This document shows, one piece after another, positions 31,809 to 58,093 of a stretch of DNA of 64,000 nt. The stretch is taken from positions 289,234 through 353,233 of IMG/VR virus record IMGVR_UViG_3300020045_006153. One strand, written 5' to 3'. Position 1 is the first letter of the stretch. Each line of letters starts with the position of its first letter. The translations under genes were made by a program, and so were the position numbers. The notes under the pieces were generated by a model. It did not search any database, was not told the origin of the DNA, and saw nothing but the letters and a program-made list of their open reading frames with translations. The stretch is from a virus (Duplodnaviria; Heunggongvirae; Uroviricota; Caudoviricetes).

Positions 31809-32543
31809 ATGCAAGTAGATATTTCCAATAACCTTATTAAGAGTTGCACCTGTGGCAACAAGACTGAATTCACACCTAACTCAATCTGCGATGTATCAAT
31901 CCTCATTTGTAATGAATGTGGTGTTGCGCATCAATTGCTAGAGGGATGGGATGAAGCAAAATTAAACGAATTCTACGGACATGAGTACCATAAGAATTAC
32001 ATGCAGAAGACAGGTCATCAATCATATCACGATAGATATAAGCACGACCTTGCAGTTGCTGCAAAGCGATTTGCAACTTACTCTGCATATATTATGGGTG
32101 CAATTGGAAAAAAGACGTTAGATATCGGAAGTTCGAATAGTGCATTTGTACACTATGCATTAGCAAACGGATATGATGCTTGGGGACTAGAACCCGGCGA
32201 CATCGGCGACGACGGTTGCACTATTCGTGGCAACCTTGCATCTGCAAGAATCGACGAAGGAGTATGGGACTTAATCACAATGCATGATAGCATCGAGCAC
32301 ATGGTTAATATTGGATCTGCACTAACAAAAGTACACAGTCTATTGTCCACAGACGGAAAATTGATTATTGATTTACCTAACTTCTGGCATACAGACGGCA
32401 TGCACCACTGGAAAGTAGTTGAGCATCTTTGGTTCCATAATGTTGATCAAATGACAGAATTACTTAATAACCACGGGTTTGATGTTGATGCAGTACACGA
32501 GCCTATTCCTGGAAAACTCGTGTTTTATACAATTAAGGTTTAA
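31809..32543 (+). CDS. Class I SAM-dependent methyltransferase with Cys-rich N-terminus
   Basis: LDIGSS, GLEP, DLITMHDSIEH, EHLWF. Confidence 0.8.
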   Translation: MQVDISNNLIKSCTCGNKTEFTPNSICDVSILICNECGVAHQLLEGWDEAKLNEFYGHEYHKNYMQKTGHQSYHDRYKHDLAVAAKRFATYSAYIMGAIGKKTLDIGSSNSAFVHYALANGYDAWGLEPGDIGDDGCTIRGNLASARIDEGVWDLITMHDSIEHMVNIGSALTKVHSLLSTDGKLIIDLPNFWHTDGMHHWKVVEHLWFHNVDQMTELLNNHGFDVDAVHEPIPGKLVFYTIKV

Positions 32544-33186
32544 GAACTAAAGGAAGATACTTTTGCACTAGTTGCAAACGTAACTGCGGACTTTGGCCCG
32601 GCCAATGCATAACCCAATCACCGGGTTGCCATTGGCCATTTGTACCTATGCAGTCGATATGGTTCCTAGGGTCTAGGCCATCTATTCCGTGACATCCATC
32701 AGAGAAGCAAGCAGCATTAAATGTTCTCTGGGGAACAATTTTAATAATGTCTTTGAAGTGGTTAAATGTATCGATCATTACTTCTTGCTCATTTGGATAC
32801 AAGTGTGATACAGACATAATCATTTCAAGATACTTACGGCCTTCTATTGAATTACGGACCATCATCATACCTGCATTGATTCCATTCCAATATGTAGTTA
32901 GTAGCACATGGTACTCATTATCTACAACATCTTCAATACGGATGTTGAAGTTAGTGATCAAAGAATCACAATCTTTCCAGAGTATCCATTCTACATCGGG
33001 ATTCTCATTACATATAGCAAGTAGCAGATCGATCTTAGCGTATCCGGGATTTGCAATATCGCTATCTGTCATTGCAACATATGGATAGTCGTGCAGTTCA
33101 CAATACTTAAGTCCGTTTTCGTTCCATGTGTATGGATACAAATAATTGTACCCTTCGTCATGCATAGTTGCTATTGCCATTACCAT
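32533..33186 (-). CDS. Glycosyltransferase, GT34-like
   Basis: WILWKDCDSLITN, INAGMMMVRN, EQ, GDWVMHWPG. Confidence 0.8.
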   Translation of the reverse strand: MVMAIATMHDEGYNYLYPYTWNENGLKYCELHDYPYVAMTDSDIANPGYAKIDLLLAICNENPDVEWILWKDCDSLITNFNIRIEDVVDNEYHVLLTTYWNGINAGMMMVRNSIEGRKYLEMIMSVSHLYPNEQEVMIDTFNHFKDIIKIVPQRTFNAACFSDGCHGIDGLDPRNHIDCIGTNGQWQPGDWVMHWPGQSPQLRLQLVQKYLPLVLKP

Positions 33187-33190
33187 AATA

Positions 33191-33967
33191 TTAAAAGTAA
33201 AAAATGTTTGTTCTATATGGATAGTTAACTTCTAACCGTTCCATAGTTTCGTTCTTGCGGGTTTCAATCCACATTGTTTTTCCCAATGCTAATCCCACAG
33301 CACACGGACTAGACATGCTAGTAATAAGCATTTCGCTGCCTGCTATAACAGATGCCATATCTTTAAATGTAGCAGTGGGGAAATATGGAACAGAAGTTTT
33401 AAAAGTTTCATTGAACCATTCGTGCTCTTCTTTAAATCCGATAAACACCGATTGATCAGATAGCCCGTAGTCTACCCATTCTTGCCATTGCGGACTGATA
33501 ACGTTGTTGCCGTCTTGATATCGTTTACCCCTGAAAATAACTATAGGACGGTCTTTTATTTTTAAGGGAGTATTGCAGGTCATATATGGACGCATTTGCA
33601 AAGCAATTTTGTTTGCTTCTAAATCTAGTCCGCATGCCTTTGCATATTGATTGGGGAAGTTCCTTGGGAATACACCAACTTCATGATGGCGGGCCATTTC
33701 GTCAAGATCGTAATCTACCTTCTCGCCAGCCCATACAGTAAATCCAGTTATGTAGTCTTGTTCCAGAATAAAAGATTCCATGCTTTTAAAATCTTCCAGT
33801 GACATACGCCCCGAATGAAAGCCAGCGCTCGGCCATCCTAATTTCTCCTGTATCATGCGATCCATATTATGTAATTTTAGATACAAATGCCCCCCACCCA
33901 ATAACTTAACTACTGAAAGAGAATTAAAAACATCCCCCGTAGTACCTGAATGTGAAAATGTTAACAT
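33191..33967 (-). CDS. GT9/heptosyltransferase-like protein
   Basis: HSGTTGDV; MASVIAGSEMLITSMSSP.AVGLALGK. Confidence 0.6.
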   Translation of the reverse strand: MLTFSHSGTTGDVFNSLSVVKLLGGGHLYLKLHNMDRMIQEKLGWPSAGFHSGRMSLEDFKSMESFILEQDYITGFTVWAGEKVDYDLDEMARHHEVGVFPRNFPNQYAKACGLDLEANKIALQMRPYMTCNTPLKIKDRPIVIFRGKRYQDGNNVISPQWQEWVDYGLSDQSVFIGFKEEHEWFNETFKTSVPYFPTATFKDMASVIAGSEMLITSMSSPCAVGLALGKTMWIETRKNETMERLEVNYPYRTNIFYF

Positions 33968-34059
33968 GCAAGTATTTACAGATTAGGAACAGGAGAGCCC
34001 TGACTTCTGAGTGCGAAGCACGGCGTGCGCAAAAATTTTAAAACTATTATCTACGTAGT

Positions 34060-34272
34060 TTATGATCCGCCACCGGCCCCATTTAGTGTATTAATAGCAT
34101 TGATGACATCGTCATGAGTAGCAAAGTACGCACTGTAAGGAATGCCTTCAGGCGTCTCTAACCGTATCATCCATACCTCTCCGATCTCAGCGACTGCTAG
34201 GATATAACCATATGTATTGCGCAATGGGCCAATGCAATAGTGTGGAATAACTTTGAAAGTGTGGTCAAACAT
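34060..34272 (-). CDS. Small hypothetical protein
   Basis: TAAATA upstream. Confidence 0.45.
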   Translation of the reverse strand: MFDHTFKVIPHYCIGPLRNTYGYILAVAEIGEVWMIRLETPEGIPYSAYFATHDDVINAINTLNGAGGGS

Positions 34273-34351
34273 ATACTAGATTATTTAACCCAAAAAAAAC
34301 TTTAAGCACAACAAAAAATTGTGTAAAAAATTTTCAAGGGTGTGAAATCTG

Positions 34352-34552
34352 TTATGTTGGTACTTCTATAGCGAATTTTATCCATGCTATCTTACACATA
34401 CTGTAGTTGGAGCGTAGATAAAACTTAAACACTGTATGAGTATGTTTAACGAATTCTGAGTATTCGATACCTTGTGCACAGTAGTTCTGGATAAGGAAGC
34501 GGCGGCATTCATCTAAGTGACCATTGGGTATAGTGAGTTCTAAATTGTACAT
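34352..34552 (-). CDS. Small hypothetical protein
   Basis: TAAATA upstream. Confidence 0.45.
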   Translation of the reverse strand: MYNLELTIPNGHLDECRRFLIQNYCAQGIEYSEFVKHTHTVFKFYLRSNYSMCKIAWIKFAIEVPT

Positions 34553-34793
34553 AGTGATATTTACACTAGAGACAGCCCGAAAACTTTACATATAGCCAAA
34601 AAAGTTGCGCGTAAAAAAAAGCGTGGTTGGAGAACCATACCCCTGGTGATTTACAACCATTGGTTTGATTTTAGGGGTTTAGAATAGTAGAGAAACATAG
34701 TAGGGGAAAATGCTTGCTTGTTGCGCAAATGCAACAATAGTTTTGTGCTATATGCCCCCACCCCCCATAAGGGGACCCTATAGGCCCCACCAC

Positions 34794-34919
34794 CTAGTCC
34801 ATTAACCCCAGCGCCCTCAGGGTCCGGATAACCTCTGCTCGCGTGTAGCCGGTCATAATGCAAATGCCTCCGATGGACAGTTCGTTTTCGGTGTACAGTG
34901 TGCGGATGTATTCTTGCAT
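34794..34919 (-). CDS. 41-aa HTH-like peptide, last cassette of the array (not in ORF track)
   Basis: MQEYIRTLYTENELSIGGICIMTGYTRAEVIRTLRALGLMD behind a consensus promoter. Confidence 0.5.
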   Translation of the reverse strand: MQEYIRTLYTENELSIGGICIMTGYTRAEVIRTLRALGLMD

Positions 34920-35510
34920 GTTACGTGTGCCCTGTTAGTGTGTATGCATGTATTATAACAGCGCATCGCTACGCTGTCAAGCAGTAACCCTACGCACTAC
35001 TACACTACTGGCACAGCAAACACAGTGCCCACATAGTTCTCGTAGTCGCAGGATGTCAATGACTATTTCAAAAACACTGCAAAGAATCCGCCTTCGCACA
35101 GCAGCCACAATGTAATTGCCTGGGCAATTAGGGTTATGCCAATCTCGCGTCCTTGGTTAATCACAATGCCCAGGCTCAGCGTCATCAGGAACAGGAGCGT
35201 AATTTGAGGCCACATAATGTTCTTCCTTTGTTAGTGTGTATGCATGTATTATAGCACAGTTGTTTAGGCTGTGCTATACTTTACATAAAAGATTTCTTGT
35301 ACAAGTCCCACATGTACACTGCAAACGCTCCCGAGGCATCGCGCAACCGCACTACCTTATTCCGGGCATAACAATGGTAGAAGCAATCACGGTAAAGTTT
35401 ACCATGCGCAACTTCCCCATCTGTGTCAACAAACCTATACGAAACTGGGGACATGTTGCTCTTCCTTGTTACTGTGTATGCATGTATTATAACATGCAGT
35501 TAACACATTG

Positions 35511-35666
35511 TCAACTGTTATCTGGCCACCAGTTTGGGTGTTTTGTTTTGTTGTATCCGCGGTTGTACAGTGCCCACTTCTCGGAAAACTCCGGGTAAGG
35601 ATTTGAGTTGTCCTTACCTTTGTGTGCGTCAATACAGCCTTGCTCGTATGGGTTTGTTGTGTGCAT
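35511..35666 (-). CDS. Rmf/CrpP-like peptide, leaderless (not in ORF track)
   Basis: MHTTNPYEQGCIDAHKGKDNSNPYPEFSEKWALYNRGY...; ATG 6 nt after TATAAT. Confidence 0.5.
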   Translation of the reverse strand: MHTTNPYEQGCIDAHKGKDNSNPYPEFSEKWALYNRGYNKTKHPNWWPDNS

Positions 35667-35714
35667 ATATGTATTATAGCACAGGTGTTTATGCTGTGCT
35701 ATAACTTTACAAAA

Positions 35715-35945
35715 CTATTTCAAACCCAACTTTACAGCGGCTGCAACTGCTTCTGGGGGCAAGGGGATGCCGCTTGCTTTTGCAGCGTCGTAGGCTGCTT
35801 GTAATGCTTGCATTTGCGCATTGCTAACACGCACAGTAGCCTGCGGACCGCGGTCCTTCTCAACTTTATTTTGCAGCGCATACAAGCTATTTTGCTGGCG
35901 CTTGTTGAGATTGGACAAAACTGCTGTTTGGAGTGGAGTGTTCAT
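35715..35945 (-). CDS. Early hypothetical protein
   Basis: Promoter + AAAGGA RBS; start MNTPLQ. Confidence 0.6.
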   Translation of the reverse strand: MNTPLQTAVLSNLNKRQQNSLYALQNKVEKDRGPQATVRVSNAQMQALQAAYDAAKASGIPLPPEAVAAAVKLGLK

Positions 35946-36035
35946 TTCGTTTCCTTTGTTTGTTGCGTATGCATGTATTATACAACGCAGGCGGGGAAAG
36001 GGCAAGCGTTATTTGCTATGCCCTTTCACTTTACT

Positions 36036-44458: not shown

Positions 44459-44716
44459 TTACGCAATTTCCAGTTCCAGCCGCTCAAACTCACGGCCCAC
44501 TGCAAACGCATTGTGGATGTCCTCTTGCACAAAGTCTTCCTTGGACAGTGCTTCCACAGCGCCCACTTCGTCCAGCGCAACGGGCAGTTCAACAAAGCGG
44601 ATCGCAGTGTGGCCGTTACGCTCCAGCACACGAGCACGACCCTTTTCGTTAGTGTAGCGCACAGCAATCTTGCCGTTCAGGGTGGACAGGCCGACGAATT
44701 TGAAAGTGTTGTTCAT
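44459..44716 (-). CDS. Early protein, 'GVSTLNG..VRYAN' family copy 2
   Basis: Paralog of 37825 and 50394. Confidence 0.7.
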   Translation of the reverse strand: MNNTFKFVGLSTLNGKIAVRYTNEKGRARVLERNGHTAIRFVELPVALDEVGAVEALSKEDFVQEDIHNAFAVGREFERLELEIA

Positions 44717-44815: not shown

Positions 44816-44938
44816 TTACCAGAACTTGCTGATGAAGTGCACTGCTACATAAATTGCAGTGCCGGCAAATGCCGCTGCTGCTACAAACGAAAGCACAATC
44901 ATCAATTCAATTAGTGTGAAACCTTTTTGCTTTTTCAT
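44816..44938 (-). CDS. 40-aa prepilin-type peptide (not in ORF track)
   Basis: MKKQKGFTLIELMIVLSFVAAAAFAGTAIYVAVHFISKFW; AAGGAG RBS and own promoter. Confidence 0.8.
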   Translation of the reverse strand: MKKQKGFTLIELMIVLSFVAAAAFAGTAIYVAVHFISKFW

Positions 44939-44999
44939 CTCTAACTCCTTTGTTGCTATGTATGTATTATAACGCAGTTTTTACACTGCGTCAACCTTT

Positions 45000-45239
45000 T
45001 TATGCCAACAACGTAATGTTGTCTGTGCTCAGTTGTGTACGTGCAATCACCATTGCCGCTTCCACTGCTGCTTCCTTCACTTCGTCGGAAGCGTCGCTGT
45101 CGCACAAGTCGCCGCTCACGTAAGCACTGTTCAACACGCTTACGCGCTTGGATGCAATGTCGAACGTTACAAGCAAACGCAAAGTCCCCAGGCGTGTGTT
45201 TTTAACTACTTTGGCTACTGCTTGGCAATGTGTTTGCAT
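45000..45239 (-). CDS. Early hypothetical protein
   Basis: Own promoter/RBS. Confidence 0.6.
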   Translation of the reverse strand: MQTHCQAVAKVVKNTRLGTLRLLVTFDIASKRVSVLNSAYVSGDLCDSDASDEVKEAAVEAAMVIARTQLSTDNITLLA

Positions 45240-57827: not shown

Positions 57828-57916
57828 TAGTAGAGCAAACAGGATTCGAACCTGTGAAAGAAACTATAATTATATAGTTGGCAACCCTGACCTGCCGTTA
57901 CACCCTTGCTCTACTA
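57828..57916 (-). tRNA. Degenerate tRNA-like element (possibly Gly-GCC derived)
   Basis: Acceptor-like stem and ACAGG-TTCGAAT-CCTGT T-arm; broken D/anticodon stems; no CCA. Confidence 0.45.
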
Positions 57917-57920
57917 TATG

Positions 57921-57998
57921 TGGTAGGACGAGTGGGAGTCGAACCCACGATCCATCGATTATGAGTCGATTGCTTTAGGCCATCTAAGCTATCATCCT
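57921..57998 (-). tRNA. tRNA CAT anticodon (Ile2-like; Met not excluded)
   Basis: Cloverleaf; ATCGA-CTCATAA-TCGAT; encoded CCA. Confidence 0.88.
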
Positions 57999-58007
57999 AA
58001 GCCATTT

Positions 58008-58093
58008 TGGTGCGGGTAGCCGGACTCGAACCGGCACGGATTTCTCCGAGGGATTTTAAGTCCCTTGCGTCTACCAAATTTCACCATACCCGC
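58008..58093 (-). tRNA. tRNA-Leu(TAA)
   Basis: AGGGA-CTTAAAA-TCCCT, long variable arm, CCA. Confidence 0.92.

Follow-up and report, generated by a model that had tools for sequence, protein, structure and literature searches.

A micro-protein of a jumbo phage joins a predicted prepilin signal to a tail that appears to mark an undescribed viral superfamily

We analyzed a stretch of 64,000 nucleotides (referred to as the window) that constitutes the final 64 kb of a 353,233-bp IMG/VR virus record, which was judged 99% complete. The phage is a jumbo myovirus with genes for a tail sheath, a terminase, a UvsX-like recombinase and a DnaB-like helicase. The terminase shares 53% identity with its counterpart in Pseudomonas phage PA5oct, and PA5oct-type phages are the nearest named phages by this gene. 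At ~32000–36000 of the window, the GC content changes from ~0.33–0.39, in plus-strand structural and replication genes, to ~0.45, in an array of small minus-strand genes, and both GC skew and AT skew switch sign there. On the minus strand at 57830–58093, three tRNA genes (Leu-CAG, Met-CAT and Leu-TAA) form a cluster. The subject of this study is a gene of the small-gene array that encodes a 40-amino acid (aa) protein, and the features of its locus are given in Table 1.

Table 1. Features of the micro-gene and of its upstream region (positions are those of the window; mature residues are numbered from the predicted cleavage site)
Feature	Position	Strand	Basis
Mini-prepilin CDS, 40 aa, ATG start	44816..44938	minus	ORF list and sequence; stop codon 44816-44818 included
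Leader codons MKKQKG, 6 residues, basic, with Gly(-1) as the predicted prepilin-peptidase site	44921..44938	minus	sequence
Predicted mature residues 1-23: pilin-like stem (F1, T2, E5, L6) and variable hydrophobic segment, Gly near 20-21	44852..44920	minus	conservation, n=115; PDB pilins
C-terminal tail, 11 residues, Y24-V-A-V-H28-F-I-S-K32-F-W34-stop, hallmark of the wider superfamily	44819..44851	minus	tail-only scans, hhalign
Predicted sigma-70-type promoter, TTGACG-17 nt-TATAAT, 11/12 matches	44966..44994	minus	consensus scan; function predicted
-10/leader unit, 26 nt, TTATAAT + ACATACATAGCAACAAAGG, common to the small-gene cassettes of the phage	44947..44972	minus	six copies in window
Shine-Dalgarno AGGAG, 6 nt 5' of ATG	44945..44949	minus	read from sequence
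7-bp inverted repeat ACGCAGT/ACTGCGT, 6-nt loop, fills promoter spacer	44972..44991		terminator-like on + strand

An earlier description of this DNA, made without database searches (hereafter, the sequence-only reading), had claimed that the 40-aa gene has an early promoter of its own. As for the promoter itself, this claim agrees with what we found, given that TTGACG-17 nt-TATAAT (11/12, 44994..44966) is followed by the 26-nt leader and AGGAG. The -10/leader unit was found in six copies in the window when three or fewer mismatches were allowed, as compared with none in 100 shuffles, and its core was present, among the 75 loci compared, only in loci of this phage. The flanking minus-strand genes at 44459–44716 (85 aa) and 45000–45239 (79 aa) each have their own copy of the promoter-leader cassette, indicating that the genes here are transcribed singly, each as its own unit, and not as an operon. 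The sigma-70 consensus and the position in the small-gene array would place expression of the 40-aa gene early in infection, and a high expression level is predicted from the near-consensus promoter and the good ribosome-binding site. Note that the inverted repeat in the promoter spacer is perfect and, when read on the plus strand, is followed by a T-run and has a terminator-like score. It may serve as an operator, or else terminate antisense transcription.

The 40-aa product consists, in this order, of MKKQKG, FTLIEL with Phe at +1 and Glu at +5, an unbroken hydrophobic run and the stop. It has all the features of a class III signal, namely a short, positively charged leader that ends in Gly(-1), a hydrophobic +1 residue, Glu5 and, after it, a run of about 20 hydrophobic residues. 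The ORF matched Pfam N_methyl (PF07963) at E = 4e-8 with 32.9 bits, as against a gathering score of 21.2, and TIGR02532 with 25.7 bits (cut-off 16.3). Since a search of the full 353,233-bp record gave no second N_methyl match (genome-wide E = 8.3e-8), the match is far beyond chance. AlphaFold2, run on the family alignment, predicted a single helix over residues 9–38 with a mean pLDDT of 92, and the predicted mature 34-mer is hydrophobic almost throughout (GRAVY 1.72). The sequence-only reading had proposed precisely this anatomy, in which MKKQKG and FTLIEL with Glu at +5 lead into a hydrophobic helix that stops without a head, and had named an N_methyl match as a check. The anatomy is borne out by the sequence, by both models and by the single predicted helix, and the match lies above the curated cut-off. 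The ORF had also been called hidden. In so far as this meant that it was unlisted, the description did not hold, as a public protein collection already contains the 40-aa ORF with a precomputed N_methyl match.

Neither alpha1-C nor a globular alpha-beta head is present in the 40-aa protein, which stops 34 residues past the predicted cleavage site, and no pilin head was found in the sequence or in the ORF list, whether downstream of the ORF or in another frame. Furthermore, the promoter of the next gene starts ~35 nt past the stop, so that there is no space for a head domain. Given that the sequence features of a class III signal are all present and the head domain is missing, we refer to the product as a prepilin-signal micro-protein and not as a pilin. 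The earlier term "headless pilin" is apt in that the prepilin signal is genuine and there is no head. However, the protein is more than a cut-down pilin, as its last 11 residues are a separate module (see below). No pilus assembly genes of the PilB, PilC or PilD type were found in the phage. In addition, the phage genome had no match to the A24 prepilin peptidase (PF01478), indicating that a host peptidase would be required for cleavage and methylation. Judging from its motif, the 40-aa protein looks like a substrate of such a host prepilin peptidase, and a piliated host, at which the prepilin signal hints, is a reasonable expectation for the phage.

We then consider how widely these elements are conserved. 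A word-seeded search yielded five further proteins of 40–43 aa with 58–67% identity to the 40-aa protein, in all of which the N-terminal GFTLIEL and the last twelve residues were invariant, the middle being variable. Full-length relatives were 34–45 aa long, and 15 of 24 family members individually matched N_methyl at E ≤ 0.1. When a 24-member profile was compared with 1.84 billion cluster representatives, 775 proteins passed E ≤ 1e-3, 64 of them with E ≤ 1e-10. Of these 775, the best 150 were, with few exceptions, 35–45 aa long and ended exactly at the last profile position. An ordinary pilin N-terminus from the PDB reached only ~31 bits against a comparable family profile, which corresponds to E of ~0.02 in the large library, and most of the 775 proteins are therefore probably tail-bearing as well.

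Residue conservation in the prepilin-signal sub-clade was determined with 139 representatives that had been pre-selected to end in H[F/Y]xxKxW. Gly(-1) and Glu(+5) occurred together in 132 of the 139, and Thr2 was found in 130/132. The leader was usually 5–7 residues long and T4a-like, with the consensus K/N-Q-K/R-G. The predicted mature length was exactly 34 residues in 115/132, despite a highly variable middle. As for the tail, His28, Phe29, Lys32 and Trp34 were invariant (139/139), although the invariance of His28, Lys32 and Trp34 is partly by construction owing to the pre-selected ending. Tail residues on which no selection had been imposed were also well conserved, with Phe29 in 139/139, Tyr24 in 117/139 and Phe33 in 113/139. 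Among the 115 members with a 34-residue mature form, positions 24–26, 28–30 and 32–34 were all conserved. A preferential conservation of one face of the tail helix was considered and rejected, since the conservation moment was non-significant (permutation p=0.86). In one group of related contigs, pN/pS was <1 in most pairs, and all replacements were located in the middle segment. Note that a motif frequency of 146/154, which came from a profile search, was discarded as biased because the profile itself contained the prepilin motif; the tail-only scans described below gave ~15–23%.

Solved pilins, namely MshA (9lab), PilA (9laa) and the geopilins 9egp and 7tgg, aligned only to profile positions 1 to 25–30, indicating that the tail is not pilin-derived. 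We scanned three collections (cellular, metagenome and viral) for the tail only, using a degenerate DNA pattern for Tyr-x3-His-Phe-[ILVFM]-x-Lys-Phe-Trp-stop. Among the genomes of 185,579 cellular species (596 Gb), 36 matches were obtained, about six of which were real members; one is in a Paraburkholderia panacisoli prophage, where the gene adjoins RecT- and RecE-like genes, and the other members are in MAG bins. On the other hand, at least 104 genuine micro-ORFs with helix and tail were found in metagenome contigs and at least 105 in viral contigs, the contigs being up to 480 kb in length and 24% to 67% in GC. The contrast between the viral contigs and the cellular species genomes indicates that the superfamily is overwhelmingly viral. 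Among the matches listed, the prepilin signal was present in 16/104 from metagenomes (~15%) and in about 24/105 from viral contigs (~23%, after three regex misses were corrected by hand), so that 77–85% of the tail-bearing members among the matches listed had a plain short N-terminus without any pilin feature. It follows that the same invariant tail works without PilD in most relatives.

The two kinds of member are related. In 41 motif-less members selected with the tail DNA pattern, the His, Phe, Lys, Phe and Trp of the tail, as well as the Tyr, were present without exception, and a profile of these 41 alone detected the window ORF at E=1.2e-10 with 41 bits, as a single copy in the phage. A comparison of the motif-less with the prepilin-signal sub-family by hhalign gave 99% probability and E=6e-18. 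The smallest motif-less members have 29–31 aa in total, near the predicted 34-residue mature size. Members of the superfamily, including the 40-aa ORF, have 30–45 aa and one hydrophobic helix, and end in H-F-[ILV]-x-K-F-W with a Tyr four residues before the His. They are stand-alone, virus-borne genes. Neither a conserved neighbour nor an operon partner of the micro-gene was found in 19 loci or in 130 loci, and no pilus-related genes were linked to it in the 130 loci. Pfam, PHROGs, NCBIfam, PADLOC and the ESM Atlas had no model or cluster that covers the tail, the source names of the members were only "hypothetical" or "uncharacterized membrane protein", and the searchable literature contained neither strings of the tail motif nor expressions like "headless pilin", "mini-pilin" or "pilin mimic". 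Taken at the level of sequence, the tail defines a large, undescribed viral superfamily of single-helix membrane micro-proteins that comprises hundreds of 50%-identity clusters, and the 40-aa protein is a chimera in which a prepilin signal and stem are joined to a viral helix-plus-tail module.

Two metagenome contigs contain tandem pairs of diverged motif-less tail-family genes (L077:9376-9588 and L127:181-445), indicating that local duplication of the micro-gene occurs. In addition, there is an abundant sub-group of near-identical proteins of ~29 aa, which start with MRNYLGC and continue with GGLFWY and the tail. These are encoded on many independent viral contigs of low GC, ~0.30–0.34 (L210, L215, L219, L225, L229, L247, L261, L262, L269, L271, L309, L311 and others), and the sub-group apparently comes from one widespread phage lineage.

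We also examined the cellular genomes that contain members for the host machinery. In five genomes, a sample too small for interpretation and made up of incomplete MAG bins, an A24 peptidase was detected in 2/2 genomes with prepilin-signal members and in 1/3 with motif-less members, and PilC/GspF in 1/2 and 1/3, respectively, of the same five MAG-bin genomes. Two of the three motif-less cellular members were in bins in which neither an A24 peptidase nor PilC/GspF was detected, although genes can be missing from MAGs and phage contigs can be assigned to the wrong bin. In one Patescibacteria MAG (G004, contig L041), the prepilin peptidase and PilC/GspF matches have 4–7 in-frame TGA codons each, indicating that TGA is a sense codon in this organism (table 25 or table 4). 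The family member on L041 likewise has an in-frame TGA just 5' of the helix codons.

The 40-aa protein was compared with known systems. Like type IV pilins and pseudopilins of the type II secretion system (T2SS), it has Phe at +1, Thr2 and Glu5 behind a basic leader that ends in Gly, as well as a helix resembling alpha1-N. Unlike pilins, it has neither alpha1-C nor a head, its predicted mature form is of only 34 residues, its last 11 residues are not those of a pilin, and it is encoded by a virulent-looking jumbo phage without assembly genes or peptidase. Geobacter-type geopilins (PilA-N, "geopilin domain 1"; PDB 9egp and 7tgg) resemble the 40-aa protein in being shortened pilins that amount to roughly an N-terminal helix, and were among the best PDB matches, but they do not have the HF-x2-KFW tail. 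Geopilins retain alpha1-C and are encoded by cells, within pilus operons; each works together with a separate PilA-C as a genuine subunit of the filament. In the haloarchaeal provirus SNJ2, PilA1 and PilA2 are virus-supplied pilins with class III signals that are processed and handled by the host type IV machinery (PMC12426801); these pilins are full-size and build real pili, whereas the 40-aa protein is headless and of bacterial type.

Among phage proteins that act on pili, PfsE (PA0721) of Pf4 is a 30-aa, N-in inner-membrane peptide that binds PilC via an aromatic motif, stops pilus extension and excludes pilus-dependent phages (PMC8764522). Being likewise a phage micro-protein of ~30–40 aa with conserved aromatics and a predicted N-in position in the inner membrane, the 40-aa protein has in PfsE its best functional analogue under our leading hypothesis. 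However, PfsE has no prepilin signal and is confined to P. aeruginosa Pf prophages, and its motif is YAWGW, which is absent from the 40-aa sequence, as against Y-x3-HF-x2-KFW in the 40-aa family. Tip of D3112 and Aqs1 of DMS3 are described as early phage proteins that abolish type IV pili and thereby bring about superinfection exclusion (PMC8764522, PMC11436027). Both are soluble and bind the cytoplasmic ATPase PilB; they neither contain a membrane helix nor mimic pilins, and are not homologous to the 40-aa family.

PA5oct-type phages need type IV pili as a co-receptor (PMC6950013). No family member was detected in the PA5oct genome by a search that worked in a positive control on the genome of the present phage, and a tblastn search of named phages gave only N-terminal matches to the 40-aa protein. 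Short prepilin-like ORFs of phages, such as LSL4 gp166c (59 aa), phrog_10597, phrog_13280 and phrog_11263, are of 60 aa or less, have the prepilin motif and are annotated as hypothetical, but they match only residues 1 to about 19–29 of the 40-aa protein and make up a separate family or families. LSL4 gp166c (L076:601-780), which comes from a cultured P. aeruginosa Nankokuvirus, has a hydrophilic charged tail without the HF-x2-KFW end, and would offer an experimentally tractable cousin among phage mini-prepilins. Partial prepilin-like N-terminal matches similar to that of LSL4 were found in the likewise cultured phages Epa16, Epa17, Epa18, Epa24 and Epa26. A 31-aa ORF with a perfect prepilin motif on a 312-kb IMG/VR contig (L005:6001-6096) was considered as a truncated member and rejected, since nothing tail-like follows its stop; another small membrane ORF comes next. 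The L005 ORF suggests that there are further independent families of phage mini-prepilins.

Our leading hypothesis for the prepilin-signal sub-clade is that the 40-aa protein interferes with type IV filament machines (pili and T2SS), as the sequence-only reading had proposed in its idea of a poisoned pilus or T2SS assembly, and we give it a little less than an even chance of being right. Soon after infection, host RNA polymerase would transcribe the gene from the near-consensus sigma-70 promoter, and the peptide would be inserted into the inner membrane with its N-terminus inside and act there. As the canonical conserved motif suggests, the host PilD/A24 peptidase would cut after Gly6 and methylate the Phe, leaving a leaderless 34-residue helix that carries Glu5. 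This mature helix may then dock where pilins dock, either on pilin stems or on the PilC/GspF platform, the invariant Tyr24/His28/Lys32/Trp34 tail adding an extra contact. Since it has no globular domain, such a stem-only peptide, if produced in excess, would be unable to support filament growth, and the headless helix would block or destabilise type IV pili, type II secretion pseudopili and competence pili. The phage would benefit in that pilus-dependent competitors are excluded and fewer progeny are lost on already infected cells.

Several points bear on this hypothesis. A Glu at position 5 of a membrane helix is costly, and pilin genetics indicates that it is needed for methylation and assembly but not for cleavage. 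That it has been kept in hundreds of diverged clusters points to a pilin-like treatment that goes further than cleavage. To our knowledge, bacterial proteins with class III signals are essentially all subunits of type IV filament machines, and this near-specificity for the machines, together with the retained Glu5 and the precedent of PfsE, favours filament interference. On the other hand, the hypothesis is weakened by the presence of the prepilin signal in only ~15–23% of superfamily members among the matches listed, by the consideration that FTLIEL conservation could reflect peptidase recognition and methylation only, and by the finding that no pilus gene was linked in 130 loci and that PA5oct has no member. 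In its widest form, the proposal is that a viral superfamily of proteins of ~30–45 residues ending in HF-x2-KFW has gone unnoticed, and that in about a fifth of it a host prepilin signal has been grafted on, so that PilD would mature these proteins to 34-residue "stem-only pilins" serving as chain terminators or plugs. We offer this tentatively, as a proposal that we regard as somewhat unlikely to hold in all its parts.

Other explanations have to be weighed against filament interference. The prepilin signal may be a biogenesis device only, which sets an N-in/C-out topology and has its leader shaved off, yielding a minimal peptide of helix and tail such as the motif-less relatives produce without processing. 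The tail would then act on a pilus-independent membrane target, for example another envelope machine or a lipid carrier, or the peptide would self-assemble into a small viroporin-like channel lined by Tyr24, His28 and Lys32 (i, i+4, i+8). This is the main rival, in our judgment only somewhat less probable than filament interference. Consistent with it, 77–85% of the tail-bearing micro-proteins among the matches listed keep the identical tail without pilin features, the motif-less profile matches the window ORF at E=1.2e-10 (99% in hhalign), and the minimal members of 29–31 aa are about as long as the predicted 34-residue mature form. Some motif-less members are, furthermore, in bins without a detectable A24 peptidase or PilC/GspF, the MAGs being incomplete, and the tail is conserved on all sides and not on one helix face. 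However, Glu5, Thr2 and Leu6 are retained across hundreds of diverged clusters, which exceeds the known needs of cleavage, and we know of no bacterial protein that uses a class III signal for insertion alone. It is also conceivable, but improbable, that the type IV filament motor extracts the mature peptide as a cargo or subunit and that the tail is delivered to the periplasm, the secretin or the surface, for instance as a tip or plug, the machine being exploited and not blocked. Pilins become extractable through the loss of their leader, and conservation of the prepilin motif and the fixed length of 34 residues would suit such a role. A virus that uses host machinery for its own pilins exists in SNJ2 (PMC12426801). 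Against extraction, a 34-residue helix with a GRAVY of 1.72 has no soluble surface for life outside the membrane or a filament core, and no supporting context gene was found in 130 loci.

If, instead, the peptide were an abundant competing substrate, it would, in line with the second option of the sequence-only reading, titrate the prepilin peptidase, host prepilins would be left unprocessed, pili and T2SS would fail and membrane insertion may clog. The strong promoter, the ribosome-binding site and the canonical substrate motif are in line with such competition. In Synechocystis lacking PilD, accumulation of prepilins is reportedly the cause of the growth defect. Photoautotrophic growth of that organism was abolished without PilD (PMC8546353). 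The invariant tail, the fixed 34-residue spacing and the motif-less majority are left unexplained by titration, which we hold to be quite improbable. Moreover, a cleavable substrate is turned over, and is thus a weak competitive inhibitor unless product release is slow. It is hardly credible, finally, that the 40-aa ORF is non-functional, having either arisen by chance or been left behind by the decay of a pilin gene captured from a host. Although the ORF is very short, 775 cluster representatives were obtained at E ≤ 1e-3, and both termini are conserved across contigs of 24–67% GC. In addition, pN/pS is <1 in most pairs, the gene has its own consensus promoter and Shine-Dalgarno sequence, and the tail is not pilin-derived. 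On this sequence evidence, a chance ORF or a pilin pseudogene appears to be excluded for practical purposes.

If the 40-aa protein is processed by PilD and does block filament machines, pili, type II secretion and DNA uptake would have a minimal inhibitor of natural origin, only 34 residues long. Filament interference would then be a third route by which phages shut off their receptor, besides those of Tip and Aqs1, which bind PilB, and of PfsE, which binds PilC, and the peptide would be a defined tool for studying the docking of pilin stems at the assembly platform. The members with the signal would also be the first viral substrates of prepilin peptidase, and would amount to a broadly distributed shutdown of pili, type II secretion or competence. 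Whatever the mechanism, an abundant and unannotated superfamily of viral micro-proteins is now defined, and the invariance of its tail implies that a conserved bacterial membrane target is probably involved. With one sub-family carrying the prepilin signal and the other lacking it, the pair is a built-in experiment that sets pilus-dependent against pilus-independent action. The 40-aa protein is of more interest for the undescribed superfamily to which it leads, and which includes a sub-clade with the prepilin signal, than as a lone "headless pilin".
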